Assembly (NCBI GenBank): GCA_050257555.1
Contig: JBLMXB010000028.1
Location: forward strand, 1,149 to 65,148
Reading direction: 5' to 3'
From: Hyphomicrobiales bacterium
GTDB lineage: Bacteria; Eisenbacteria; RBG-16-71-46; SZUA-252
Length of the DNA stretch: 64,000 nucleotides
Both the position numbers and the translations under genes were made by a program. Shown one piece after another: positions 5,588 to 63,483 of the stretch. The notes beneath the pieces were generated by a model that saw nothing but the letters and a program-made list of their open reading frames with translations, was not told the DNA's origin and did no database searches. Position 1 is the stretch's first letter; every line of letters begins with the position of its first letter.

Positions 5588-8144
5588 CGTCCACTCCCGC
5601 GCCGCTGACGCGCACGTAATAGATGCCGCTCGCGACGCGCCGCCCGTCGCGGTCGCGCCCGTCCCAGGTCGCCGAGCCGTAGCCGCCGCCCGCGGGCGCG
5701 GGTCCCTCGATCTCCCGGACCAGGCGGCCCCGGAGATCGTAGACGCGGACCGTGATGGTCGGGCCCGGCGGGGGCGTCGCGGTCCGGAACGGGACCGTCA
5801 CGACGTCGCCGCCCCGGGACCGGAACGGGTTCGGGAAGGGCCGGCCCACGGCCGGCGCCGAAGAGACGAAGAGGGTGCCCTCCGCGACCTCGATCGAGCT
5901 CCCGTCGGCGCGGTACGCCTCGAGGCGGTAGCGATGGAGCTGCCCGGCCACGAGCGAGTCGTCGGACGCGGCCACCGCGGCGGGGTCGAGGAGGGCCCGG
6001 TTCACGAGACGTCCCGACGGAGCGGGGACGTCCGACGTCGCGGCCCCGAGATCGCGGTAGAGATTGAGGCCGACGGCCCCGGGGACCGAGACCGGCGCCC
6101 AGCGGATCACGGCGCGAGGCGAGGCGCTCGCAGGGTCGAGCGTCACCGAGAGCGACGGGACGACGTCCGGCGTCGGGGCGACCCGGTACCGCTCGAGGGC
6201 CAGGCCCGAGGCGACCAGGAGCGTGTCGCCGGTCCATGCCCCGCTCCGGGCGACGGCCGGAACGTCGATCGGTCCCCGCGCGGCGGGCGCGCTCAGGCTC
6301 GAGACGTCGACGACCAGCGCCCCCTCGCCGCCGAGGAGGAGGGCTGCCGAATCGCCGCTCCGGGCGATGCCGAGGATCGGGGGCGTGGCGAGCGTCGCGC
6401 GGAGGATCAGCGCCGCCGGCTGGAACGCGTCCACGATCTGGAGGCCGTACGACCGCGTCCCGACGAGGAGGACCGCCCCCGTCAGGTCGAGCGCGCGCGC
6501 TCCCTGGCCGGACGGCGCTCCGATCGACGTCGGGGCATCGGGGTTCCCGAATCCGATCGAGGCGAGGCCGAGCGTCTCGTCGGCCACGAAGAGGACCGTG
6601 TCGCGCGCCGCGAGGGCGCGGACGTCCTGGAGCGCCGGGTAGTCGACGCTGCCGCGCGCGGTGGGCAGCGTCGAGTCGGCCACGTCCACGAACGTGACCC
6701 CGGCGCTCCCCGCCCCGCGGCGGCCGGCCGCGACGAGGTTCGGCCCCGCGATCGCGACCGCGCTCGTGAGCCCCGGCAGCGCGACGGCCCCGATCCGGGA
6801 CGGCGCCGCCGGGTCGCGCACGTCCACGACCTCGAGGCCCGACGTGCCGCCGGCGACGAACGCGAGGCCCCTCGTGGAGTCGACGACGACGTCGAACGCG
6901 CGGCCGGTCCCGCTCTCGGGGAGCGCGCCGACGAGCGAGGAATCGGCGCCGTCCGTCCGGTAGATCCGAAGCCCGCCGGTGTAGTCCGCGACGTACGCGA
7001 GCCCGCCCACGGTCGCCACCCGGCGCGTCCGCCCCGTCCCGCCGTACGGCGGGGCCGGGAGCGGCCCGGCGCCGGCCGCGAGCTCCACCTCCGAGGCCCC
7101 GACCTCGTCCGGCTCGCTCACCGTCGCGACGTCGACGGTCGAGACGGCGAACCCGCCCGCCACCGCGCGGACCCAGAGCGGCTCCAGCGTGGTCAGGAAG
7201 TTCCCGATCAGCGTGAGGTCGTTCCCCCCGGCCCCGGTCCGGAGGAACGTGGCGAGGGTCCTCCCCTCCGCGACCGCGGCGAGCGTGTCGCCGGCGACCG
7301 CGACCGACCGGACGAGCTTGGACCCCTGCACCGTCACCGATCGAACGATCGAGCGGGCGGCCATGTCGATCACCGTCACGCCGGCGTTCCCGTCGGCGAC
7401 GAACGCGAGCGGGCCGGTCCACGCGACGTCGCTCGCCTCGTGGGCGTTGAACCCGAACTCGGCGAGCGACTCGGGCGCCGCCGCGGCCCCGCTCCAGCGA
7501 TAGACGGTGAGGAGGAGCTTCGTCAGCGTGCCGGGCCGCGTGCTGACCACGAGCACCGAATCGGAGCGCGCGGCCACGGCGCGCACGCGCCGTCCGTCGT
7601 CGTACGTCACGGAACGCGCGAGGGAGAATCCCGACGTCGCGTCGTACGCGAGGAAGTCGAGCGTCGAGTCGCCGGAGGCCGCGACGAGGCCCGGCCAGGC
7701 GCCGAGCGCCGTGCCGAGCGTCACGTCGCCGAGGCGGTCGATCGAGGCGCCCGCGAGGGGAGCGGCGGGGTCGGACGCGTCGACGGAGAGGACGCCGCGG
7801 GCGCCGGCGAAGAGGAAGAGCGTGCTGCCGTACGCCGCCGCGGACCGGATCGAGCCGGCCGCGCGGAAGAGCGAGCGCGAGCCGAGGCTGTCGGCGCGGG
7901 CGAGGAGGAGCTCCACGCCGGAGCCGGTCGGGACGGCCGCGACCCACGAGCCGGCGGCGGGAAGGTCGACGGCGGGCCCGTACGTCGCGGCAAGCGACGA
8001 GGGAACGCCCCGATCCGCGACGACCTGGGGGGCCGAGCGCGCGACGGCCGGCAGCCCCGCGAGGAGGCAGCCCGCCAACGCGATTCGCGACCAGGCGCGC
8101 CACCGGCCGACCGTGCGGGAGATCATTCGGCACGACGCTAGCAC
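5559..8144 (-). CDS. LVIVD-repeat beta-propeller protein with FlgD-Ig/T9SS-type C-terminal domain
   Basis: 861 aa. An alternative start at 8126 (MISRTVGRW) is equally plausible. Signal peptide ALAGCLLAGLPAVARSA. Repeated LVIVD-like units: GVLSVDASDPAAP, GVTVIDMAARS, GLEVVDVRDPAAP, GVTFVDVADSTLP, GLQIVDAFQPAAL, ALVVDVSSLSAPA. C-terminal tail: FPNPFRS...ITVRVYDLRGRLVREI...[20 protein letters not shown]...AIAVLR. Confidence 0.8.
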   Translation of the reverse strand: MLASCRMISRTVGRWRAWSRIALAGCLLAGLPAVARSAPQVVADRGVPSSLAATYGPAVDLPAAGSWVAAVPTGSGVELLLARADSLGSRSLFRAAGSIRSAAAYGSTLFLFAGARGVLSVDASDPAAPLAGASIDRLGDVTLGTALGAWPGLVAASGDSTLDFLAYDATSGFSLARSVTYDDGRRVRAVAARSDSVLVVSTRPGTLTKLLLTVYRWSGAAAAPESLAEFGFNAHEASDVAWTGPLAFVADGNAGVTVIDMAARSIVRSVTVQGSKLVRSVAVAGDTLAAVAEGRTLATFLRTGAGGNDLTLIGNFLTTLEPLWVRAVAGGFAVSTVDVATVSEPDEVGASEVELAAGAGPLPAPPYGGTGRTRRVATVGGLAYVADYTGGLRIYRTDGADSSLVGALPESGTGRAFDVVVDSTRGLAFVAGGTSGLEVVDVRDPAAPSRIGAVALPGLTSAVAIAGPNLVAAGRRGAGSAGVTFVDVADSTLPTARGSVDYPALQDVRALAARDTVLFVADETLGLASIGFGNPDAPTSIGAPSGQGARALDLTGAVLLVGTRSYGLQIVDAFQPAALILRATLATPPILGIARSGDSAALLLGGEGALVVDVSSLSAPAARGPIDVPAVARSGAWTGDTLLVASGLALERYRVAPTPDVVPSLSVTLDPASASPRAVIRWAPVSVPGAVGLNLYRDLGAATSDVPAPSGRLVNRALLDPAAVAASDDSLVAGQLHRYRLEAYRADGSSIEVAEGTLFVSSAPAVGRPFPNPFRSRGGDVVTVPFRTATPPPGPTITVRVYDLRGRLVREIEGPAPAGGGYGSATWDGRDRDGRRVASGIYYVRVSGAGVDDAKAIAVLR

Positions 8145-8216
8145 GGGCGTCCGAACCCCTCAAGTTTGAAGTCTTTCCGCTTGTTCTCCGGAGCGCGCGT
8201 CGGATACCGTTTCGCG

Positions 8217-8870
8217 ATGCATCTCGTCGAATCGATCCTCTCCCCGCTCTCGGCGTTCATCCTCGCCACGATCTCCTCCTGGGGCTACGCGGGCATCGTC
8301 GCCTGCATGGCCATCGAGAGCGCCTGCATCCCGCTCCCGAGCGAGATCATCATGCCCTTCTCGGGATACCTCGCCTCCACCGGTAGGTTCTCGCTCTGGG
8401 GCGTCACGCTCGCGGGGGCGGTCGGCAACGTGCTCGGCTCGTGGGCCGCGTACGCGGCCGGGGCGCGCGGCGGCCGGCCGCTCGCGGAGCGGTTCGCCCG
8501 GTGGCGGATCATCCGGATGGACGAGTACGACAAGGCGGACCAGTGGCTGAAGCGGCACGGGCTCCAGGTCGTGTTCTGGACGCGGCTCCTCCCGATCGTG
8601 CGGACGTTCGTCTCCTTCCCCGCCGGGGCGGCGCGGGTCCCGTTCGGGCGCTTCACCCTCTACACGCTCGTGGGCTCGATCCCCTGGGCGTTCGCGCTGG
8701 CGCTGGTCGGCGCGATCCTGGGCGAGCACTGGGAAGATATCCGCACGTACTGGCGCGGGTTCGACCTCGTGGTCCTCGCGGGCCTCGCGGTTCTTTTCAT
8801 CCTTTGGGCCCGCCATCATTTCCAAGGGGAAGGCACCCGCGCGCCGCGGGAACGGGACGCGGCCGATTGA
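8217..8870 (+). CDS. DedA family membrane protein
   Basis: The track ORF starts at TTG 8166; I prefer ATG 8217 (MHLVESIL), which gives 217 aa, the typical DedA length. Motifs: GYAGIVACMAIESACIPLPSEIIMPFSGYL and WTRLLPIVRTFVSFPAGAARVPFGRF. Confidence 0.8.
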   Translation: MHLVESILSPLSAFILATISSWGYAGIVACMAIESACIPLPSEIIMPFSGYLASTGRFSLWGVTLAGAVGNVLGSWAAYAAGARGGRPLAERFARWRIIRMDEYDKADQWLKRHGLQVVFWTRLLPIVRTFVSFPAGAARVPFGRFTLYTLVGSIPWAFALALVGAILGEHWEDIRTYWRGFDLVVLAGLAVLFILWARHHFQGEGTRAPRERDAAD

Positions 8871-8907
8871 CGGCCCCCGGGTCGCATGTTAGTCTCGGCA
8901 ACCCATT

Positions 8908-8981
8908 TGGGGGATCGTCCAGTGGTAGGACACGTGGCTCTGGACCACGGTACAGGGGTTCGAATCCTCTTCCCCCAGCCA
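8908..8981 (+). tRNA. tRNA-Gln (anticodon CUG), CCA encoded
   Basis: Hand-folded cloverleaf. Acceptor TGGGGGA/TCCCCCA, D arm GTCC-AGTGGTA-GGAC, anticodon stem CGTGG/CCACG with loop CTCTGGA (CTG at positions 34-36), T arm AGGGG-TTCGAAT-CCTCT, discriminator G, then CCA. Confidence 0.85.
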
Positions 8982-9022
8982 CATCTTCTCAGGACGCGAG
9001 ACGCGACCATGATGCCGGTTGT

Positions 9023-9097
9023 GGCGCTATCGTCTAGGGGTTAGGACGGGTGGTTCTCAGCCATCAAACCGGGGTTCGAATCCCCGTAGCGCTACCA
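9023..9097 (+). tRNA. tRNA-Glu (anticodon CUC), CCA encoded
   Basis: Hand-folded cloverleaf. Acceptor GGCGCTA/TAGCGCT (with a G1-U72 wobble), D arm GTCT-AGGGGTTA-GGAC, anticodon stem GGTGG/CCATC with loop TTCTCAG (CTC at positions 34-36), T arm CGGGG-TTCGAAT-CCCCG, discriminator A, then CCA. Confidence 0.85.
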
Positions 9098-11878
9098 ACC
9101 GACAGCGGGCGACCGGCGCGGGCCCGCCGGGGCCCGCGGCGTTCCCTGCTCGGACTCTCCCTCGCGCTCCTCCTCGCCGCCGCGCCCCCGTCGAGCGCCC
9201 AGCCGCGCGAGTCCGCGCGCCCCGGCGCCGCCGGGCTCCCGGCCAACGTCGAGCGCGTCGACTCGCTCGGCGGGATCACGCAGTACCGGCTCCGATCGAA
9301 CGGGATGATCCTCTACGCCATTCCGAACCACGCCGCCCCGGTCATCACGTTCGAGGTCGTCTATCACGTCGGCTCGAGGAACGAGTGCCCCGGGAACACC
9401 GGCTCGGCCCACCTCCTCGAGCACATGCTCTTCAACAAGAGCACGAAGAACTTCGGGAAGGCGAACGGGAAGCCGACGTTCCAGGAGGTGCTCTACCAGG
9501 CCGGCGCCGACTTCGGCTCCTCGAACATGACGACGTGGAACGACCGGATGACCGGCTACTCGACCCTCCCCGCCGATCAGCTCGACCTGGCGATGCGGAT
9601 CGAGGCGGACCGGCTCGGCCGCGCGCTGATCCTCGACTCGGAGCGCCAGCCCGAGATGTCGGTGGTCCGGAACGAGTACGAGATCGGGGAGAACAACCCG
9701 TACAACGTGCTCGACAAGGAAGTGATCGCCGAGACGATCCAGGCGCATCCCTACCACTGGGACACGATCGGGTACCGCTCGGACATCGAGGGGGTCTCGA
9801 CCGAGACGCTCCGGAAGCACTATCACGAGTTCTTCCACCCCGACAACGCCGAGGCCATCCTGGTCGGCGACTTCGACGTCGCGAACGCGCTCCGGATCTT
9901 CGACCGGCAGTTTGGCGCGTTTCCGCGGGCGATGGAGCCGATTCCGAAGGTGATCACGGTCGAGCCGCCGCAGCAGGGCGAGCGGCGCACGATCGTGAGG
10001 CGGCCGGGAACCGTCGGCATCGTGGAGCTCGCGTACCTGAGGCCGGGCGCCCTCGATCCCGACTACGTGCCGCTCGACGTGCTCACGACGATCCTGACGT
10101 CGGGCGTGAACTCGCGCCTCCGTCAGGCCCTTGTCGAGACGGGGCTCGCGACCGACGTCTCCGCCTGGAACTTCCAGTTCCGCGATCCCTACCCGATCGT
10201 CACGCAGGCGACCGTCGCCCCCGGGAAGACGCACGAGCAGGTCGAGGCGGCGCTCAAGGCGGCGCTCGCCAAGATCGGCGAGGACGGCGTCACGAAGGCC
10301 GAGCTCGAGCGGGCGAAGAATCAGCTCGAGGTTTCCGTCATCCGGGGTCGCGACGGCACGTACGAGCTCGCCTCCTCGCTCGGCGAGGCGGTGGCGTCGG
10401 CGAACTGGAAGTGGTTCGTCGGCTACGTCGATTCGGTCCGGCAGGTCACGGCCGACGACGTGAAGCGGGTCGCCGCGAAGTACCTCGTCCCCGATCACGC
10501 GAACGTCGGATGGTTCGAGCCGCTCTCGGAGAAGCCGGCCGCGTCGAAGGGCCCGGCGCCGAAGAAGAAGGCGCACGGCGCGGGCGGCGCGTCCGACGAG
10601 CCGGCGACCGGCTTCGCGTCGCGCACCCTGCATCGCGTGCTGCCGAACGGGCTGATCCTCGACGTGCTGCCGAACCACGCCGTGCCGACCGTCGCGATCG
10701 ACGGGCTCGTCTTCGCGGGCGAGATGGACGGGGACCCCGCCAAACCGGCCGTGCCGGACCTGACGGCCGAGATGATGAATCGGGGCACGAAGACGCGCGA
10801 CAAGCGCGCGATCGCGGCGGCCCTCGACGGGGTCGGCGCGCAGCTCTCGATCTCGGCCGGGCTGAACGACGCGACGGTCACCGGATCGGGCCTCTCCCGC
10901 GACCTCCGGCTCCTCCTCACGATCCTGGCCGACGAGCTCCGGAACCCCTCGTTCCCCGACTCCGAGATCACGAAGGCGAAGGCGGAGATGAAGGCCGACC
11001 TCCTGCGGGCCGACGACAACACCCGGATCCGCGCCTGGAACCGGATCCGCCGCCTCGTCTATCCGGAGGGGCACCCCTACTACGCGCCGACGACGCAGAC
11101 GATGCTCGCGAGCCTGAGCGCGACGAAGGCCGCGGACCTCCGCGCCTTCCACGACGCGCGCTGGGTCGGCTCGGGCACGATCCTCGCCATCGTGGGCGAC
11201 GTCGATCCCGAGAGGACGGCCGCGCTCGTCGATTCCCTCTTCGGGGGGATGCCGCGGGGCGAGCGCCCCGCGCTCCACGTCCCGGTCACGAAGCCGGACG
11301 CGCCGGAGCGCGTCGTCGAGACGCTCCCCGGCAAGGCGAACATCGACTTCGTGTACGGGAAGGCGAGCGGGCTCAAGCGGACCGACCCCGACTACGAGGC
11401 GTCGATCATCGCGAACGCCGCGCTCGGGCAGAGCGCGCTCACGTCCCGCATCGGGAAGCGCGTCCGCGACACCGAGGGGCTCTCCTACTCGCTCTACTCC
11501 CGCTTCTTCTGGAGCGACCTGGTGGACGGCGTCTGGTTCGTCGACGTCGCGGTCGCGCCGCAGAACCTCGCGAAGGCGCTCCGCTCCACGAAGGACGAGA
11601 TCGAGACGTACTACAAGGGAGGGATCACCGACGAGGAGGTCCGCGTCCAGAAGGAGTTCTTCGCGGGGAACTACGTGGTCCGCCTGGCGACGAACGCGGG
11701 GATCGCGAGCGCCCTCACGTCCGCCGAGAAGTTCGGCTTCGGGCCCTCCTACCTCGACGACTTCCCCCGGAGGATCCGCGCCGTCACGAAGGACCAGGTC
11801 GACCGTGCCATCCAGGAACGGCTCGACCCCGCGGCGATGCACCTCGTCGTCGCCGGCGACGTCACCTCGATCCCCTAG
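9050..11878 (+). CDS. M16 (pitrilysin) family zinc peptidase, fused active plus inactive halves, secreted
   Basis: HxxEH zinc motif in GSAHLLEHMLFNKST. A second M16-like half starts around LPNGLILDVLPNHAVPTVAID. Signal peptide RRSLLGLSLALLLAAAPPSSAQP. The 5' end is uncertain: the only canonical in-frame start (GTG 9050) lies inside tRNA-Glu (see findings). The stop is secure. Confidence 0.8.
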   Translation: MVLSHQTGVRIPVALPTDSGRPARARRGPRRSLLGLSLALLLAAAPPSSAQPRESARPGAAGLPANVERVDSLGGITQYRLRSNGMILYAIPNHAAPVITFEVVYHVGSRNECPGNTGSAHLLEHMLFNKSTKNFGKANGKPTFQEVLYQAGADFGSSNMTTWNDRMTGYSTLPADQLDLAMRIEADRLGRALILDSERQPEMSVVRNEYEIGENNPYNVLDKEVIAETIQAHPYHWDTIGYRSDIEGVSTETLRKHYHEFFHPDNAEAILVGDFDVANALRIFDRQFGAFPRAMEPIPKVITVEPPQQGERRTIVRRPGTVGIVELAYLRPGALDPDYVPLDVLTTILTSGVNSRLRQALVETGLATDVSAWNFQFRDPYPIVTQATVAPGKTHEQVEAALKAALAKIGEDGVTKAELERAKNQLEVSVIRGRDGTYELASSLGEAVASANWKWFVGYVDSVRQVTADDVKRVAAKYLVPDHANVGWFEPLSEKPAASKGPAPKKKAHGAGGASDEPATGFASRTLHRVLPNGLILDVLPNHAVPTVAIDGLVFAGEMDGDPAKPAVPDLTAEMMNRGTKTRDKRAIAAALDGVGAQLSISAGLNDATVTGSGLSRDLRLLLTILADELRNPSFPDSEITKAKAEMKADLLRADDNTRIRAWNRIRRLVYPEGHPYYAPTTQTMLASLSATKAADLRAFHDARWVGSGTILAIVGDVDPERTAALVDSLFGGMPRGERPALHVPVTKPDAPERVVETLPGKANIDFVYGKASGLKRTDPDYEASIIANAALGQSALTSRIGKRVRDTEGLSYSLYSRFFWSDLVDGVWFVDVAVAPQNLAKALRSTKDEIETYYKGGITDEEVRVQKEFFAGNYVVRLATNAGIASALTSAEKFGFGPSYLDDFPRRIRAVTKDQVDRAIQERLDPAAMHLVVAGDVTSIP

Positions 11879-57040: not shown

Positions 57041-57481
57041 ATGGGACGAGTCGCCGACCTGCTCCGCGCCAAGGGCTCCGCCATTTATACCATTTCCTGC
57101 GACCAGACGGTGTACGAAGCGATCGTCGAGATGGTCCGTCACAACGTCGGTTCCCTGGTCGTACTCCAAGGCGACGATCCGGTGGGCATCGTCACGGAGC
57201 GGGACTACCTGAAGGAGATCGCGCTCCGGGGCCGCACCTCCCGCGCGACGGAGGTGCGGGAGATCATGAGCCGGACCGTCATCGTGGTGGATCCGGACCG
57301 CTCGCTCGACGACTGCATGGCCATCATGACGGAGCGCCGGGTCCGCCACCTCCCCGTCCTCGAGCACGACCGCCTGGTGGGCGTCATCTCGATCGGGGAC
57401 GTCGTCAAGGGACTCGCCAAGGACCGGCAGGTCGAGATCCGGTACCTCACCGACTACATCACGGGGAAATATCCGGCATGA
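57041..57481 (+). CDS. CBS domain pair protein
   Basis: Start ATG 57041, preceded by AGGAGG. Two CBS repeats: [21 protein letters not shown] and [21 protein letters not shown]. 146 aa. Confidence 0.8.
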
Positions 57482-58011
57482 GCTCCACGCGGACGTGGAT
57501 CGGAATCGGGCTCGCGGGCGCCGTCGCCGCCCTCGCCCTCGCGGCGTGGTCGGCGGCGGGCGCCGCGACCGGTGCCCTCCGCGTCTATTCCTTCGAGCGA
57601 AAGGGGTACGTCATGGTCGACAAGGTCGTGAAGAACGACGCCGAGTGGCGGAAGGAGCTTCCACCCGATGTCTTCCGGATCACCCGCCAGGGGGGCACGG
57701 AGCTCGCGTTCACCGGCAAGTACTGGGACAACCACGATCACGGAATCTACCGGTGCGCCGACTGCGGGAACGACCTCTTCACGTCGGACACGAAGTTCGA
57801 CAGCGGCACCGGATGGCCCAGCTTCTGGAAGCCGATCGCGCCGGAGAACGTCGACACGAAGAACGACCTGAGCCTCGGCATGGTGCGCGACGAGGTCCGC
57901 TGCGCGCGCTGCGGCGCCCACCTCGGACACGTCTTCGACGACGGGCCGAGGCCGACCGGGCTCCGCTACTGCATCAACTCCGCCGCCCTCGCGTTCACGA
58001 AGACGAAGTAG
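57478..58011 (+). CDS. msrB: Peptide-methionine (R)-S-oxide reductase MsrB with N-terminal signal/anchor
   Basis: ATGA overlap with the CBS gene. Signal [24 protein letters not shown]. Two zinc CxxC pairs (CADCGN, CARCGAH) and the catalytic RYCINS. 177 aa. Confidence 0.88.
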
Positions 58012-58022
58012 CGCCTCCACGC

Positions 58023-58047
58023 GCCGCCGGGCATGGCGCCCGGCGGC
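58023..58047. terminator. GC hairpin between convergent msrB and rtcB
   Basis: GCCGCCGGGC-atggc-GCCCGGCGGC, a 10-bp perfect stem filling most of the 39-nt convergent gap. Confidence 0.4.
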
Positions 58048-58050
58048 CGC

Positions 58051-59481
58051 TCACCCCTTCACGCAGAGGATCGGCGTGAGCTTCGCCACGATGCGCGCGA
58101 GCCCTGCCCGCTCCGCCGCCTCGACCACCGCGGTGACGTCCTTGTACGCGCCGGGCGCCTCCTCCGCGACGCCGCGCGGCGACGGGCTCCGGATCTCGAT
58201 CCCGCGAAGCCGGAGCGTCTCCATCACGTCCCGTCCCCGCCACCGCTTGAGCGCGGCCGTGCGGCTCATCGCGCGCCCGGCCCCGTGGCAGGCCGACCCG
58301 AACGAGAGCGCCTCGCTCTCCTTCGTGCCGACGAGGATGTAGGAGGCCGTCCCCATCGTCCCGCCGATCAGCACCGGCTGGCCGGTCTCGCGGAAGAGGC
58401 CCCGGAGCCCGGGGTGGCCGGGTCCCCAGGCGCGGGTCGCGCCCTTGCGATGGACGTAGAGGCGCCTCGTCGCGCCGTCCACCCGGTGCGCCTCGACCTT
58501 GCACGTGTTGTGCGAGACGTCGTAGAGGAGCGGGAGCGTCGTGCCGGGAAGCACGCGCTCGAACGCCCGGCGCGCCAGGTGCGTCACGATCTCCCGGTTC
58601 GCGAGCGCGCAGTTGATCGCCGCGCGCATCGCGCCCAGGTACTCCTGGCCGAGCTCGGAGCGGATCGGCGCGCACGCGAGCTCCCGGTCGGGGAGCGTGA
58701 TGCCGTGCCCGCCCGCGGCCGCGACCATCCGCTTCAGGTAGTCGGTGCCGATCTGGTGGCCGAGCCCGCGCGAGCCGCAGTGGATCGACACGACCGCGTC
58801 GCCGGTCGCGAGGCCGAACGCGGCGGCGGCGGCGTGGTCGCCGATCGCGGCGACCTCCTGCACCTCGAGGTAGTGGTTCCCCGATCCGAGCGTGCCCATC
58901 TCGTCCCGCTGGCGCTTCTTCGCGTGATCCGATACGGCGTCCGGGCGCGCGCCCTCCATCCGGCCGTCCTCCTCGATCCGGCCCAGGTCCTCGGCTCGAC
59001 CCCACCCGCGCTCCACGGCCCACGCGGCGCCGCCCTCGAGCATCCGCTCCATCTCCCTGGCGTCGAGGCGGATCGTCCCCGTGCTCCCGACGCCCGCGGG
59101 GACCGCGCCGAAGAGCGCGTCGGCGAGATCGGAGACCCGCGCGCGCACGTCGTGCGCCGTCCGCTCCGTGAGGAGCGTGCGGACGCCGCAGGAGATGTCG
59201 AAGCCGACGCCGCCCGCGGACACGACTCCGCCTCGGTCCGGATCGAACGCGGCGACGCCGCCGATCGGGAATCCGTAGCCCCAGTGCGCGTCCGGCATCA
59301 CGTACGCCGCCTGCTCGATGCCCGGGAGCTTCGCGACGTTCGTCGCCTGCTCGGCCACCTTCTCGTCCATGTCGCGGAGGAGCGCCTCCGTCGCGTAGAG
59401 CACGGCCGGCACGCGCATCGCCCCGCGGCGCGGGATCCGCCACGCGCACGCCGCCGTCCGCTCGAATCGGGTCGGGTCCAT
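58051..59481 (-). CDS. rtcB: RNA 3'-phosphate/2',3'-cyclic-phosphate ligase RtcB
   Basis: Start re-set to ATG 59481 (MDPTRFERTAACAWRIP). Family motifs: MPDAHWGYGFPIGGV, GGVGFDISCG, LGSGNHYLE, HCGSRGLGHQ, SHN and CHGAGR. 476 aa. Confidence 0.92.
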   Translation of the reverse strand: MDPTRFERTAACAWRIPRRGAMRVPAVLYATEALLRDMDEKVAEQATNVAKLPGIEQAAYVMPDAHWGYGFPIGGVAAFDPDRGGVVSAGGVGFDISCGVRTLLTERTAHDVRARVSDLADALFGAVPAGVGSTGTIRLDAREMERMLEGGAAWAVERGWGRAEDLGRIEEDGRMEGARPDAVSDHAKKRQRDEMGTLGSGNHYLEVQEVAAIGDHAAAAAFGLATGDAVVSIHCGSRGLGHQIGTDYLKRMVAAAGGHGITLPDRELACAPIRSELGQEYLGAMRAAINCALANREIVTHLARRAFERVLPGTTLPLLYDVSHNTCKVEAHRVDGATRRLYVHRKGATRAWGPGHPGLRGLFRETGQPVLIGGTMGTASYILVGTKESEALSFGSACHGAGRAMSRTAALKRWRGRDVMETLRLRGIEIRSPSPRGVAEEAPGAYKDVTAVVEAAERAGLARIVAKLTPILCVKG

Positions 59482-59507
59482 CGTCTCTCTCCCGCGTCGC
59501 GACGGGG

Positions 59508-60611
59508 TCAGACGTCGACGACGCACTGCGCGAGCCACGTCCCGTCCGCCTCGCGCGCCACGCGGAGCGACGTGTACGTGGCCCCCTTCACCTCCACGGC
59601 CGGCTCGTGCTCGGACGGACGCACCGGCTCCCCGGCGGCGACGCCGACGAGCCCCTCGGCGCCGAGCGTCACGTCGAACGAGCCGAAGAGCATCCGGCGC
59701 GTCGCCATCTCGTAGACCACCGCGTTCAGCCAGTCGACGAGGAGCACCTCGTCGTCGGGCGGATCGGGCATCGGAACGCGGAGCGTCACGCGCTCCTCCG
59801 CGCGGACCGAAGCGGGGTCGACGAGCACGGCCGTCAGCGCCAGGGCGGCGCCGGCGAACGCCGCCTCCTTCGTGGCGCCCCGCCCGCGCACGCCGACGTC
59901 GGCGCCGTGCTCGAAGTGCTCCCAGCGCGGCCCGGACGCGCCGGAGGTCTCGACGCGCGGCGCCCCGGCCCGTGCGGCCGCCGCGCCGAGGAGCCGCACG
60001 ACCTCCTCGTCGCTCACCTGGCGGAAGTCGTCGAAGAAGGCGCCGACGGCGAGGAACCGCTCCGGCGTCCAGAGGACCACGACCTCGTCCGCCTCGCGCT
60101 CGAGACGCCGCACGGCCTCGGGCGGCGCGACGCCCGCGGCGGCGATCAGAAGCGCCGGCCCCTGGGCGCGGATGAGCCGGAGCGCCGCGGCGAGCGTGGC
60201 GCCCGTCGCCACGCCGTCGTCGACGACCACGACCGTGCGGCCGGCGGGGTCGAGGGGGCGCCGCGCGGGCGTGTAGCGCTCGCGCCGCTCGAGGAGCGCG
60301 CGCCACTGGCGCCGCCGCTCCTCCTCCAGATACCGCTCGGTGAGTCCGATCTCCTCCGCGTTTCCGTGGAGCGTCATCCGCCCCGTCTCGTCCACGGCGC
60401 CGACGGCGAGCTCCGGCTGTCCCGGCGCGCCGAGCTTGTGGACCAGGACCACGTCGAGGTCCCCCTCGAGCGCGGCCGCGACGATCGCGGCCATCGGCAC
60501 CGCCCCGCGCGGCACGCCGAGCACGAGCGGCCGCGCGCCCCGGAGCCGCTCGAGGCGGCGGGCCAGGAGGCGCGCGGCTTCCTCCCGATCGCGGAACGGC
60601 TCGCGGTTCAC
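59508..60611 (-). CDS. Phosphoribosyltransferase-domain / archease fusion protein
   Basis: The GTG start at 60611 overlaps the TGA of the upstream UbiA gene (GTGA). N-terminal part: FRDREEAARLLARRL...LVLGVPRGAVPMA...RTVVVVDDGVATGATLAAA, which contains the PRPP loop. C-terminal part: WEHFEHGADVGVRGRGATKEAAF...VEVKGATYTSLRV...WLAQCVVDV, the archease pattern. No stop codon lies between the two parts. 367 aa. The rest of track ORF 59508..62168 is a false extension. Confidence 0.75.
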   Translation of the reverse strand: MNREPFRDREEAARLLARRLERLRGARPLVLGVPRGAVPMAAIVAAALEGDLDVVLVHKLGAPGQPELAVGAVDETGRMTLHGNAEEIGLTERYLEEERRRQWRALLERRERYTPARRPLDPAGRTVVVVDDGVATGATLAAALRLIRAQGPALLIAAAGVAPPEAVRRLEREADEVVVLWTPERFLAVGAFFDDFRQVSDEEVVRLLGAAAARAGAPRVETSGASGPRWEHFEHGADVGVRGRGATKEAAFAGAALALTAVLVDPASVRAEERVTLRVPMPDPPDDEVLLVDWLNAVVYEMATRRMLFGSFDVTLGAEGLVGVAAGEPVRPSEHEPAVEVKGATYTSLRVAREADGTWLAQCVVDV

Positions 60612-61546
60612 GGCGCCACCCCCGCGGCGCGTCCGGCGCCGGCCAGGAGGAGCCCCGCCCCCGCGCCGGCGGCGTAGAGCAGGAACGACCGGAGCGTCCA
60701 GACCTGTGCCGGCACGATCCGGCTCGTGGTCTCGGGGTCGGCGAGGAGGCGGCGCGCGGCCGCCGCGGCGTGCGGAAGCCCCGCGAGCCCGAAGAGGAGC
60801 CCGGAGGGCGCGCCGAAGGCGACGAGGAGCACGAGGCCTCCGTATGCCGCCGCCACGATCCAGCCGAAGACGCGGCTCGCCGCCCGGCGTCCGAGACGGA
60901 CCACGAGCGTCCGCTTTCCCGCTTCGCCGTCGGCGCGGCAGTCCGGGAATTCGTTGATCCAGAGGAAGGCCGCGATGAGGAGGCCGAGGGGGGCCGACGC
61001 CAGGAGCACGTCGCTCCCGACGCGGCCGCGCTGGACGAGGTACGTGCCGCACGCGATGACCGGGCCGTACACGACGGCCACGGCGAGCTCGCCCAGGCCG
61101 CGGTAGGAGAGACGGAGCGGCGACGCGTGATAGAACCACGCGAGCGCGACGCCCAGGAACCCGAACGCGAGCACGCGCGGCTCGCGGGCCAGCACGATCG
61201 CGAGGCCCGCGGCGATGCCGATCGCGTACGCCGTCGCCGCGATCGATGCCGTCTCGGCGCGGGTCAGGAGCCCGTCGACGAGGACCCGCTTGCCTCCGGA
61301 GAAGGGGCTGCGCTCCTCGGGCCGGACGTTCGCGTCCGCACCGCTCGCGAAGTCGACCAGCTCCCCCGAGGCGTTCTTCGCCGTCTCGATGGCGAAGATG
61401 CCGGCGATGGTGAGGAGGAGCCATCCGACGGCGAGCGGGCCGTCGCGCGCGGCGGCCGCCGCGCCGATCGTCATCGAGGCCGCGGACGCGAGCGTGATCT
61501 TCGGATCGGCCAGGCGATGGAGCCCACGCCACCAGTCGCCGCTCAT
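60608..61546 (-). CDS. UbiA-superfamily (MenA-like) membrane prenyltransferase
   Basis: 312 aa with about 8-9 TM helices. Asp-rich motif context AKNASGELVDFASGAD, then FSGGKRVL, and a second cytoplasmic-loop region WINEFPDCRADGEAGKRTLVVRLG, typical of the family. Confidence 0.7.
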   Translation of the reverse strand: MSGDWWRGLHRLADPKITLASAASMTIGAAAAARDGPLAVGWLLLTIAGIFAIETAKNASGELVDFASGADANVRPEERSPFSGGKRVLVDGLLTRAETASIAATAYAIGIAAGLAIVLAREPRVLAFGFLGVALAWFYHASPLRLSYRGLGELAVAVVYGPVIACGTYLVQRGRVGSDVLLASAPLGLLIAAFLWINEFPDCRADGEAGKRTLVVRLGRRAASRVFGWIVAAAYGGLVLLVAFGAPSGLLFGLAGLPHAAAAARRLLADPETTSRIVPAQVWTLRSFLLYAAGAGAGLLLAGAGRAAGVAP

Positions 61547-61706
61547 CGGTTCCCCCCGCGGGGATCGCCCCCGATCCCTCCTTGAGCGAACACCCGCCCC
61601 CCGTGCCGGTCAAGGGGAACCCGATCCACCCGGGCCGCGCTCCGGCGCATCGCGGGGGATTCCCGCGGCGCCTCGAGGGGTATATCGTGGAGGCAGGCAT
61701 TCCTCT

Positions 61707-61731
61707 CCGATCGGAACGACGCGCCGATCGG
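61707..61731. promoter_or_regulatory. Two copies of the 8-bp palindrome CCGATCGG, 17 nt centre to centre, upstream of the USP gene
   Basis: Copies at 61707..61714 and 61724..61731, read directly. They lie 42-66 nt upstream of ATG 61773. A TATATC hexamer lies about 25 nt further upstream. Confidence 0.3.
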
Positions 61732-61772
61732 ACGATTCCTCGGGCCGGCGGCGTCCGGCGAAAGGAGACGTC

Positions 61773-62207
61773 ATGAAGGTCCTCGTCGGAGTCGACGACT
61801 CGCCGTTCTCGGAGGCGGCGATCGAGTACGCGAAGCGCGCGGCCTGGCCGCAGGGGACGGAGTTCCTGGTGCTCTCCTCCAGCCCTCCGATCTGGGTGGG
61901 ACCGGGCGAGGCGGTCGCCGTGGGCCCGATCGCGCAGCTCAACCAGGAGCAGCAGGACTACCACCGGTCGATCGCCGAGAAGGCGTCGAAGTCGCTGACC
62001 GGCTCGGGCCTCGTGGCGAAGGCGATGACCGGACTCGGCGACCCGCGTTCGGCGATCGTCGACGCCGCGACCCGCGAGCGGGTCGATCTCGTGATCGTCG
62101 GATCGCACGGGCGGTCGGGATTCAAGAAGCTCCTGCTCGGGAGCGTCGCCTCGCACGTCGTGGCGCACGCACCGTGCAGCGTCCTCGTGGTGAAGCAGCC
62201 CGCCTGA
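61773..62207 (+). CDS. Universal stress protein (UspA family)
   Basis: Start ATG 61773, preceded by AAAGGAGA. Sequence MKVLVGVDDSPFSEAAIEYA...VDLVIVGSHGRSGFKKLLLGSVASHVVAHAPCSVLVV includes the ATP-binding G-2x-G-9x-G(S/T) motif. 144 aa. Confidence 0.88.
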   Translation: MKVLVGVDDSPFSEAAIEYAKRAAWPQGTEFLVLSSSPPIWVGPGEAVAVGPIAQLNQEQQDYHRSIAEKASKSLTGSGLVAKAMTGLGDPRSAIVDAATRERVDLVIVGSHGRSGFKKLLLGSVASHVVAHAPCSVLVVKQPA

Positions 62208-62216
62208 GCCGAGGCG

Positions 62217-62247
62217 CGTCCCCCGCGACGCCGCGTCGCGGGGGACG
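62217..62247. terminator. Strong GC hairpin between convergent USP and MFS genes
   Basis: CGTCCCCCGCGAC-gccgc-GTCGCGGGGGACG, a 13-bp perfect stem within the 52-nt gap. Confidence 0.5.
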
Positions 62248-62259
62248 TTCGCCGTGCGC

Positions 62260-63483
62260 TCAGCCGCCGCGCTCCTCCGGCGGCTTGACGCCCCGGAACG
62301 CGACGTAGAGGAGCACGTCGTACGCGATCTTCATCCCCGCGCCGATGACGAGGGGCGCGCCGAGCGACCCTCCCTGCATGAAGAGCCCCGCGAACGCCGG
62401 AGCCGCCGCCCACGACCCGAGCCGCACCAGGTGCGTGACGCCCGACGCCGGCGTCCGCTCCTCGGGCTTCACGACCGCCATGACGTACGACTGGCGCGTC
62501 GGGACGTCCATCTCCACCAGCGCCTCGCGCAGGAGGAAAAGGAGCGCGGCGACGCCGAACGAGGGCGCGAACGGCACCGCGAGCAGGAAGAGACTCGACG
62601 GGATGTGCGTGAAGACCATCGTGTTCACCAGGCCGATCCGCCGGGCGAGCCACGCCGCGCCGACGTGGGATGCGGCGTTCAGGAGCCGCGCGGCGAAGAA
62701 GAGGAGCCCGATCCCCGCCTCCCGCACGCCGAATCGCGCGTAGAAGAAATAGGAGAGGAGGGCCGTCGTGAGGAACCCGCCGCCCAGCCCGTCGAGCGCG
62801 AAGAGCGCGGAGATCCGCGTCACGATCCGGCGCGTCCCGGGCGAGAGCGTGAGTCGGCGGACCGGCGAGGCGAGCTCGATGCCGGGCGAGAGGCCGCGGT
62901 AGAGGATCGCGGTGACGAGGAGGAGTCCCGCGTAGACCAGGACCGCGAGACGCAGCGACTCGGGCCCCGAGGCGTGCGCGAGGCGGAAGGCGGCCGGCAG
63001 GCCCGCCGCCAGCGAGCCGAGCGCGTGGCCGGCGTCCTGCAGCACGTTGTAGTACGCGAAGACGGCCGTCCGCCGCTCGGGGGGCGCCGTCGCCGGGAGC
63101 ACGACCTGGTCGAGGATCATCGACGCCCCGCGGTCGCGTCCCATCCCGTTCAGCATCCCGAAGAACGCCGCGAGCCCGATCACGAGGAACCGGGAGGCGA
63201 GCGCGACCGCGACGCCGCCCAGGGCGCCGAGGATTCCGAGCACGATGAGCGCCCGGCGTCGCCCGAAGTGGTCGCCCCCGAGCGTGACGAGGAGCGCCGA
63301 AACGGCGGCACCCGCGAGGCCCGCCGTGATCACGGCCCCGATCCGCCCGGGATCGAAGCCCGATGCGGCCAGGTGGATCCCGATCAGGACGCCGATCATG
63401 CCGGTCGCGACGGCTCGGAGGAACGCCGCGGCGTACAGGATCGCGCGGTCGCGCGGCCGTACTTCCCGCTCGGGGCTCGTCAC
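62260..63483 (-). CDS. MFS transporter
   Basis: 407 aa with about 12 TM helices. MFS loop 2-3 motif: GGDHFGRRRALIV. Confidence 0.8.
   Translation of the reverse strand: MTSPEREVRPRDRAILYAAAFLRAVATGMIGVLIGIHLAASGFDPGRIGAVITAGLAGAAVSALLVTLGGDHFGRRRALIVLGILGALGGVAVALASRFLVIGLAAFFGMLNGMGRDRGASMILDQVVLPATAPPERRTAVFAYYNVLQDAGHALGSLAAGLPAAFRLAHASGPESLRLAVLVYAGLLLVTAILYRGLSPGIELASPVRRLTLSPGTRRIVTRISALFALDGLGGGFLTTALLSYFFYARFGVREAGIGLLFFAARLLNAASHVGAAWLARRIGLVNTMVFTHIPSSLFLLAVPFAPSFGVAALLFLLREALVEMDVPTRQSYVMAVVKPEERTPASGVTHLVRLGSWAAAPAFAGLFMQGGSLGAPLVIGAGMKIAYDVLLYVAFRGVKPPEERGG

Follow-up and report, generated by a model that had tools for sequence, protein, structure and literature searches.

To our knowledge, no nucleotide-metabolic accessory enzyme is known for the well-studied pair formed by the RNA ligase RtcB and archease. 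RtcB of the E. coli type is shorter, at about 408 amino acids (aa), and works without archease. Mutation of H9, D12, K117, D141 or I142 in the archease of P. horikoshii abolishes RtcB activation (PMC3973293). In the human RTCB-Archease complex the conserved tip of archease is the RTCB interface, the binding of archease and that of RNA to RTCB are mutually exclusive, and the archease metal ion touches the gamma-phosphate of GTP and, as the authors speculate, may promote the removal of pyrophosphate (PPi) (PMC10944509). The other protein family of concern here is that of TT1426 from T. thermophilus, a structural-genomics protein only ever predicted to be a type I phosphoribosyltransferase (PRTase), with predicted PPi-binding roles for Arg32 and Lys56 of its structure (PDB 1wd5); the nearest characterized structural relatives of TT1426-type PRTases are phosphoribosyl pyrophosphate (PRPP) synthetase and the 6-oxopurine PRTases (PMC2427199 and our Foldseek search). 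Here, we describe a 64-kb stretch of contig JBLMXB010000028.1 (the window) in which a PRTase of this family is fused to archease and is followed directly by rtcB. What is new is the recurrent fusion of a PRPP-family enzyme within an operon of RtcB and archease, a pair that was itself already known.

We propose, with a probability of roughly 0.45, that a stress island has taken up an RtcB-archease ligase, which became joined to the PRPP enzyme of that island, with the PRTase supporting the guanylylation cycle. The resident TT1426-family type I PRTase of the island would have been fused to the N terminus of archease, and this PRPP-binding enzyme would most likely handle a purine nucleotide, PRPP or PPi for the guanylylation of RtcB. 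At times of low nucleotide pools, it could supply or recycle G nucleotides or take care of PPi as the leaving group. We infer that the link between PRTase and archease is functional because the fusion, or operons made of the same parts, recur in unrelated lineages and because PRPP synthetase takes the equivalent position elsewhere. A link through PRPP, purine nucleotides or PPi is the most likely reading, since the fusion recurs and PRPP synthetase (Prs) sits directly on archease-RtcB.

Three consecutive minus-strand open reading frames (ORFs), at the coordinates that a preliminary description of the window had given them, encode a UbiA-family prenyltransferase, the PRTase::archease fusion and RtcB (Table 1). 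Matches to Pfam and to PDB sequences bear out the gene identities in that description, and the tight spacing that it reported was verified. The TGA of the UbiA gene (60610..60608) shares bases with the GTG of the fusion gene (60611..60609), giving GTGA at 60611..60608, while the rtcB ATG at 59481 follows the fusion stop by 26 nucleotides (nt), with the Shine-Dalgarno sequence GGGAGAGAG in front of it. The divergent gap between the Usp and UbiA genes (61547..61772, 226 nt) and the hairpin at 58023..58047, which had been given as the bounds of the unit, are both present. The description was also right that rtcA and rtcR are missing nearby: neither is found among the genes within 6 kb in the syntenic locus L001 (all Pfam-assigned), the remainder of the 64-kb window being unscreened for both. 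The genes within 6 kb of the unit are Usp, MFS, PHO4, PhoU, MsrB, CBS and CarAB, so the locus does not have the rtcBA plus rtcR arrangement. The NCBI gene models of the source contig are identical to ours, the fusion (P0001, 367 aa) and the UbiA protein (P0121, 312 aa) each matching at 100% identity. The 66-kb contig belongs to a metagenome-assembled genome labelled Hyphomicrobiales, whose closest relatives are labelled Candidatus Eisenbacteria.

The locus of the closest relative of the fusion (L001, 75% identity) is fully syntenic, with Usp on one side of UbiA-fusion-RtcB, and MsrB-CBS and then CarAB on the other. At 45-62% identity (L002, L003, L004/5 and L006/7), the surroundings are unrelated, UbiA is absent and only the fusion followed by rtcB is kept. 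The gap between these two genes is 10-28 nt in these five other fusion loci, and the order of PRTase, archease and then rtcB is constant. Judged from these neighborhoods, the conserved functional core is predicted to be a pair of genes, that of the PRTase::archease fusion and rtcB. In related genomes, the syntenic position exists in two further states, one with a stand-alone PRTase between Usp and MsrB, followed by CarAB (L008), and one with UbiA overlapping a stand-alone PRTase between Usp and MsrB-CBS, again followed by CarAB (L170). Archease-rtcB may have been inserted at this position or, alternatively, deleted in L008 and L170. As to the surroundings of the more distant fusions, a conserved ORF of 135-137 aa without a Pfam match lies just past rtcB, followed by MgtC/DUF4010, in L002 (8600-9013) and L003 (8573-8980); it belongs to the fusion clade at 62% identity and is absent from the window. 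Upstream of the fusion-RtcB pair in L006 (2283-5286) lie Fic, zeta-toxin-like and LAGLIDADG genes, which suggests a mobile or toxin-rich neighborhood in that genome only.

The association extends to unfused genes. The PRTase family was sampled at 160 loci (1.84 Mb), 80 from genomes of GTDB species and 80 from metagenomes, the latter half holding stand-alone PRTases only, among the matches listed. RtcB and/or archease lay within the flank of 11 of the 160 loci, against an expectation of 0.3-0.6 if one rtcB per genome of 3-6 Mb is assumed (Poisson p < 1e-10). Unfused archease-RtcB-PRTase was found in L096 (with a 6-nt gap) and L010, the order RtcB-PRTase-DLH in L157 and L164, and PRTase-MBL hydrolase-archease-RtcB in L114. 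Archease and PRTase are divergent in L029, Prs-DLH-PRTase lies a few kilobases from archease-RtcB in L064 and L066, and a DLH::PRTase fusion shares L068 with Prs-RtcB-archease. From the opposite direction, we sampled three stand-alone archease loci (L174, L175 and L176), picked solely for their long contigs, and each of the three shares the gene set of the PRTase loci. Archease-RtcB of L175 is preceded by a PRTase with a frameshift, by a gene of the erythromycin-esterase-like (EreA-like) type and by DLH, and L174 has NMD3-like and LonB-like genes. The stop of a ribose-phosphate diphosphokinase (Prs) gene in L176 (8057-10902; TIGR01251, 340 bits) overlaps the start of archease, with RtcB next, and in L068 (12706-15592; TIGR01251, 312 bits) Prs lies 36 nt upstream of RtcB. 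The L096 cluster (6033-10016) continues after archease-RtcB-PRTase with a same-strand protein that has a LigD 3'-phosphoesterase domain (PF13298, 1.7e-41), a possible end-healing partner, and with an NMD3-like zinc ribbon.

Neighbor-joining trees of the PRTase and archease domains placed the fusions in about eight groups interleaved with unfused proteins. In most of the groups, and for both domains, the nearest unfused protein was more similar than any fusion of another group. For the window (group G1), the nearest unfused PRTase and the nearest PRTase of another fusion group were 76% and 70% identical, the corresponding archease values being 70% and 62%, in a comparison whose unfused sample is biased towards the sequences of the window. 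Along similar lines, the values were 61% (L066) against 47% for the PRTase of G4 and 53% (L029) against 42% for the archease of G6. In the archease comparison, G2 was slightly reversed and G4 was tied, and G8 had no PRTase comparison. The fusions thus appear, from the domain similarities, to be independent in origin. Given that archease-RtcB lies 7 kb from the PRTase in L066 and that archease is divergent from the PRTase in L029, they seem to arise repeatedly where the genes are already neighbors.

All parts of the core retain the residues expected of their families. The product of 58051..59481 is, on strong homology, predicted to be an active RtcB RNA ligase (3'-phosphate/5'-hydroxyl) of the long archaeal/Thermus type. 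It matches positions 1-426 of the 426 of PF01139 (553 bits, E 6e-166) and the PDB sequences 2epg (T. thermophilus) and 1uc2 (P. horikoshii) at E values of about 1e-150. Its translation contains each of the motifs MPDAH, FDISCGVR, GSGNHYLEV, IHCGSRGLGHQ, SHN and GSACHGAGR, in alignment with those of T. thermophilus RtcB. Every motif with the metal-binding Asp/Cys/His residues and the guanylylated His is kept, the consensus forms being MPDxH, GxDIxCG with its Cys, GSGNH, GSRGLGHQ, HN and CHGAGR; some of these residue roles were taken from the human complex (PMC10944509). By homology, the enzyme would seal RNA breaks that have 2',3'-cyclic or 3'-phosphate and 5'-OH ends, through a His-GMP intermediate formed from GTP.

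The archease half of the fusion covers PF01951 in full (112 bits, model positions 1-136 of 136) and found PDB 4n2p in Foldseek with a TM score of 0.86, normalized to target length. Its residues H235, D238, K342, D366 and V367 are invariant across 21 aligned fusions and correspond to H9, D12, K117, D141 and I142 of P. horikoshii. With these activating residues intact, the domain is on strong homology predicted to activate the guanylylation of RtcB. The PRTase joins the N terminus of archease about 10 residues ahead of the conserved tip (H235/D238), via a flexible linker whose length and sequence differ among fusions. An AlphaFold2 (AF2) model built on the fusion alignment gave both domains with confidence (mean pLDDT, 90.3), their relative orientation being undefined (pTM, 0.63).

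The PRTase domain scored 68.5 bits against PF00156 (cut-off, 26.3) and shares its fold and PRPP motif with TT1426, to which it is 49% identical across 206 aligned columns; no NCBIfam equivalog reached its cut-off for this domain. In Foldseek, 1wd5 came first and the next neighbors with a PRTase fold were PRPP synthetase and 6-oxopurine PRTases. The PRPP loop VVVVDDGVATGAT is kept and fits the pattern of four hydrophobic residues, two acidic residues and G-x-T-G-x-T. R35, K59, D131, G133, T136 and G137 are invariant or nearly so, with PRG/K59 conserved. At residue 132, where the PRPP loop has its second acidic position, 6 of 15 PRTase sequences and 2 of 21 fusions carry Asn (VVDNG), which is unusual for type I PRTases. 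At E values of 1e-30 or better, the TT1426-type family comprises 1,518 cluster representatives at 50% identity, and although a crystal structure has been at hand since 2004 the family still awaits the assignment of a function. Among its other fusions are those to DLH, CBS-DUF2267 and CrcB. The multidomain members P0249, P0255, P0260, P0382 and P0355 include CBS-DUF2267-PRTase, PRTase-CrcB and a PRTase with a Dak2 fragment, and several members of 360-390 aa have C-terminal extensions without a Pfam match.

When the PRTase neighbors in the 160 loci were clustered and the cluster representatives scanned against Pfam, the recurrent ones were CBS pairs, Usp, Hsp20, HPF-CSD fusions, NMD3-like zinc ribbons, NAPRTase and the AmmeMemoRadiSam trio; PolX, P-type ATPase and acetyl-CoA synthetase also recurred, by sequence inspection only. 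A Prs gene was present in 13 loci, and a DLH-type alpha/beta hydrolase in about 53 (for instance, L013, L020, L033, L064, L066, L157 and L164), usually adjacent to the PRTase or fused to it, as in L068 and P0252. On this evidence, gene islands for stress and dormancy in bacteria appear to include the TT1426-type PRTase as a standard component. With Usp on one side of the unit and MsrB and CBS on the other, the module of the window is, by predicted gene content, located in an island of this type; DLH, Prs and NMD3-like genes are absent from the window. In about 10-12 loci (L012, L017, L159 and L165 among them), the PRTase and the AmmeMemoRadiSam trio (radical SAM, AMMECR1 and Memo) are 1.5-2.5 kb apart and mostly on opposite strands. 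A weak match to the NMD3 family (PF04981) marks a protein of about 170-200 aa that stands beside the PRTase in 12 loci (such as L094, L097, L098 and L115) and occurs also in L174 and L176. The NMD3-like proteins and HPF-CSD fusions near the PRTase hint at a ribosome-related theme.

The preliminary description had singled out the PRTase as a partner foreign to the textbook RtcB-archease modules, which was correct, and the linkage that it had hung on finding in other genomes proved to be conserved and recurrent in the neighborhood survey. What did not survive is its wider model of a single machine for RNA repair at the membrane, composed of UbiA, the fusion and RtcB, with UbiA and the PRTase sharing PRPP chemistry. 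The GTGA overlap does imply translational coupling in this genome, UbiA precedes the PRTase in L001 and L170 too, and UbiA-family genes occur near the island in L017, L156 and L174. However, these last three belong to different subfamilies (27-39% identity by tblastn) and are found at about the chance rate. The window, L001 and L170 are the only loci in which UbiA adjoins the PRTase; it is missing from the more distant fusion loci and from the unfused operons (L002-L006, L010, L096, L114, L157 and L164). In L170, the UbiA gene overlaps a stand-alone PRTase gene in the absence of archease and RtcB, and close homologues elsewhere (63-69% identity, in a family whose members are labelled Myxococcales, Planctomycetes and other groups) have unrelated neighbors. 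Shared PRPP chemistry likewise finds no counterpart in the protein models. The UbiA protein scored 92.8 bits against PF01040 (cut-off, 34.2) and its best NCBIfam matches were MenA models, all under cut-off (NF004751, 128 versus 264 bits; TIGR00751, 77.8 versus 102 bits). Its 15 NCBIfam matches at E values of 0.01 or better were MenA, chlorophyll-synthase, homogentisate phytyltransferase and generic prenyltransferase models, none of them named as a PRPP-using UbiA model of the decaprenyl-phosphate phosphoribosyltransferase type.

The absence of UbiA elsewhere, the arrangement in L170 and the chance-rate occurrence near other PRTase loci led us to reject UbiA as a conserved RNA-repair partner. 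The comparative data already contradict the predicted three-gene machine, to which we give next to no credence. Since L170 has UbiA-PRTase alone, UbiA is tied to the PRTase gene in this clade, apart from archease and RtcB. By these comparisons it is a local neighbor and not a predicted part of the RNA-repair module. In this clade the UbiA gene is probably co-transcribed with the fusion and rtcB, as the lineage-specific first gene of the transcription unit, yet its coupling would be with the PRTase gene and not with RNA repair.

The main rival to a tethered PRPP enzyme that serves guanylylation is an incidental fusion, brought about by adjacency in a co-regulated island, where neighboring genes would readily fuse. 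The PRTase and archease-RtcB would be independent members of the island, and the PRTase would work in a pathway of its own (for example, PRPP-dependent salvage with DLH, Prs and NAPRTase) and have no effect on ligation. We hold this to be rather unlikely. The following points speak for it or against our own proposal. About 93% of the PRTase-family loci are not near RtcB, and the commonest partner, far ahead of RtcB, is the DLH hydrolase, adjacent or fused in 53 loci. The PRTase is fused promiscuously, to DLH, CBS-DUF2267, CrcB and other domains, and therefore the fusion may reflect frequent adjacency in a co-regulated island and not shared chemistry. Archease fusions make up only 4 of the best 150 PRTase-family representatives, and the 120 closest archease homologues listed include no fusion, in a list that omits the fusion proteins themselves and gives no fusion count. 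The AF2 model of the fusion predicts no packing between the domains and no confident inter-domain contact (pTM, 0.63, with a disordered linker), and the neighbor-joining trees are trees of short domains without support values. There is also a chemical objection, in that a PRTase yields a nucleoside monophosphate, not the nucleoside triphosphate needed by RtcB, and that pyrophosphorolysis is thermodynamically unfavorable. On the other side, an incidental fusion sits poorly with the many apparently independent origins, the constant N-to-C order with rtcB always directly downstream, the finding that Prs too sits directly on archease-RtcB, and an attachment point that adjoins the archease tip entering the RtcB active site.

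The same domain might instead be a sensor, its PRTase fold acting as a PRPP, (p)ppGpp or purine-nucleotide switch that gates whichever partner it is fused to. Here it would control whether archease can reach RtcB, and RNA repair would thereby track nucleotide or alarmone status in dormancy and recovery. One conserved domain joined to many unrelated output domains is typical of sensor modules, and this one is set among ligand-sensing CBS and Usp genes. Its structural neighbors in Foldseek are 6-oxopurine PRTases, which are (p)ppGpp targets, and PurR and PyrR are regulators with a PRTase fold. The catalytic PRPP loop, the Arg of the PPi loop and the Lys of the flexible loop are nevertheless nearly invariant, as for an enzyme, and the presence of a dedicated Prs in 13 loci points to consumption of PRPP. 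We consider a sensor improbable. A PRTase that modifies RNA with PRPP, either at an end or at a damaged ribose (by phosphoribosylation or base re-addition), to heal the RNA before RtcB seals it, strikes us as very improbable. RNA-repair systems usually couple a ligase with end-modifying enzymes, the L096 cluster adds a LigD 3'-phosphoesterase and L114 an MBL-fold hydrolase, and yeast Rit1, of a different fold, is a precedent for PRPP-dependent ribosylation of RNA. Yet action on RNA is not known for any type I PRTase, the protein was not seen to have an RNA-binding domain or surface, and most members of the PRTase family are not found with RNA enzymes.

If the tethering of the PRPP enzyme to archease is functional, it could reveal a new layer of control of RNA repair under nucleotide limitation. 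The more general claim, that PRTases, and in some lineages a dedicated Prs, are unrecognized accessory enzymes of bacterial RtcB-archease, tethered at the archease tip and acting through PRPP, purine or PPi chemistry coupled to guanylylation or through phosphoribosylation of RNA ends, is in our estimate doubtful; if true, it would give a first function to a widespread, dormancy-associated PRTase family. Even an incidental fusion would still place RNA repair by RtcB in a dormancy-type island together with protein repair (MsrB, Hsp20 and Lon) and DNA repair (PolX and the LigD phosphoesterase). Within the literature that could be searched, no link of archease or RtcB with a PRTase or with PRPP came up; a mention in the Burroughs and Aravind 2016 survey or in the 1wd5 structure paper is possible.

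Table 1. Positions of the unit, its protein domains and the neighboring features in the window
Feature	Position	Strand	Remarks
UbiA-family ORF	61546..60608	-	312 aa; PF01040, E 2.8e-26
PRTase::archease fusion ORF	60611..59508	-	367 aa; PF00156, residues 11-170 (5.4e-19); PF01951, residues 230-367 (2.6e-32)
PRTase domain of fusion (residues 1-216)	59964..60611	-	type I PRTase, TT1426 family; PDB 1wd5, E 1.8e-43, residues 6-208
Disordered inter-domain linker (residues 218-226)	59934..59960	-	AF2 pLDDT < 50 here only
Archease domain (residues 230-367) and stop codon	59508..59924	-	PF01951, E 2.6e-32, full model; PDB 4n2p, E 5.7e-18
rtcB ORF	59481..58051	-	476 aa; PF01139, E 6e-166 over full model
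Promoter-like block TTGACC-N17-TTCGCT	61585..61613	-	38 nt upstream of UbiA ATG
Usp gene, divergent from unit	61773..62207	+	PF00582, E 3.7e-30; same position in L001, L008 and L170
GC-rich hairpin between convergent rtcB and msrB	58023..58047		10-bp GC stem, -28.4 kcal/mol
MsrB gene	57469-58011	+	PF01641, E 1.7e-50; convergent with rtcB; syntenic in L001 and L170
CBS-pair gene	57041-57481	+	PF00571, E 1e-25; convergent with rtcB; syntenic in L001 and L170

The noncoding surroundings of the unit lie in a window of about 72% G+C. When the window, L001 and L170 are compared, good conservation within the Usp-UbiA intergenic region is confined to the TTGACC-N17-TTCGCT block, which is plausibly the promoter of the whole unit; this function is only inferred, because a strict sigma-70 promoter scan gave zero sites. 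At the other end, the hairpin modestly beats shuffled GC-rich sequence (z = -2.07, with 9 of 200 shuffles as good), is without a U-tract and is possibly a bidirectional terminator; a scan for intrinsic terminators found a single weak terminator-like site, at chance rate. No riboswitch or other RNA element was found in 57800-62400 (Rfam, E <= 1). Two tRNA genes on the plus strand, 45 nt apart (8908-8978 and 9023-9094), are the sole Rfam matches at gathering threshold in the window. A reading of the unit as a defense system was rejected, since PADLOC, run with the three proteins, gave a sole match, to ShosT, over the PRPP loop (17.5 bits, E 7e-4) and below threshold.

The locus was set beside its closest known systems. 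The UbiA protein resembles MenA (1,4-dihydroxy-2-naphthoate polyprenyltransferase) in its PF01040 fold and in a MenA-like second Asp-rich motif followed by GKRTLVVRLG, but it is far under every MenA equivalog cut-off, its first motif is divergent (KNASGELVDFASGAD) and no men genes were seen beside it. With rtcBA/RtcR of E. coli the window shares an RtcB ligase, presumed to repair stress-damaged RNA, whereas its rtcB lacks nearby rtcA and rtcR, the latter a sigma-54 activator, and the unit has a sigma-70-like conserved block upstream. The DevR/DosR regulon of M. tuberculosis contains Usp, HspX, the PRTase-erythromycin-esterase protein Rv2030c and Rv0571c (PMC4410610, PMC3177182). The gene make-up of the PRTase islands (Usp, Hsp20, CBS, DLH, erythromycin-esterase-like and NAPRTase) is similar to the make-up reported for it, and the PRTase-domain proteins Rv0571c and Rv2030c are possibly comparable to TT1426. 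TT1426 (1wd5) differs from the PRTase of the window in that the latter is fused to archease, with rtcB next. A further close system is the RtcB-archease "tRNA splicing operon" (Desai et al. 2014, PMC3973293; human complex, PMC10944509), in which archease likewise lies directly upstream of rtcB, and with which the window shares a long-type RtcB (476 aa here) and an archease that keeps all the RtcB-activating residues. Unlike in that operon, neither a tRNA methyltransferase gene nor any other gene for tRNA processing was seen near the unit, which stands in a Usp/CBS/MsrB stress context, and the archease of the window makes up only the C-terminal half of its protein (367 aa), the N-terminal half being a type I PRTase.

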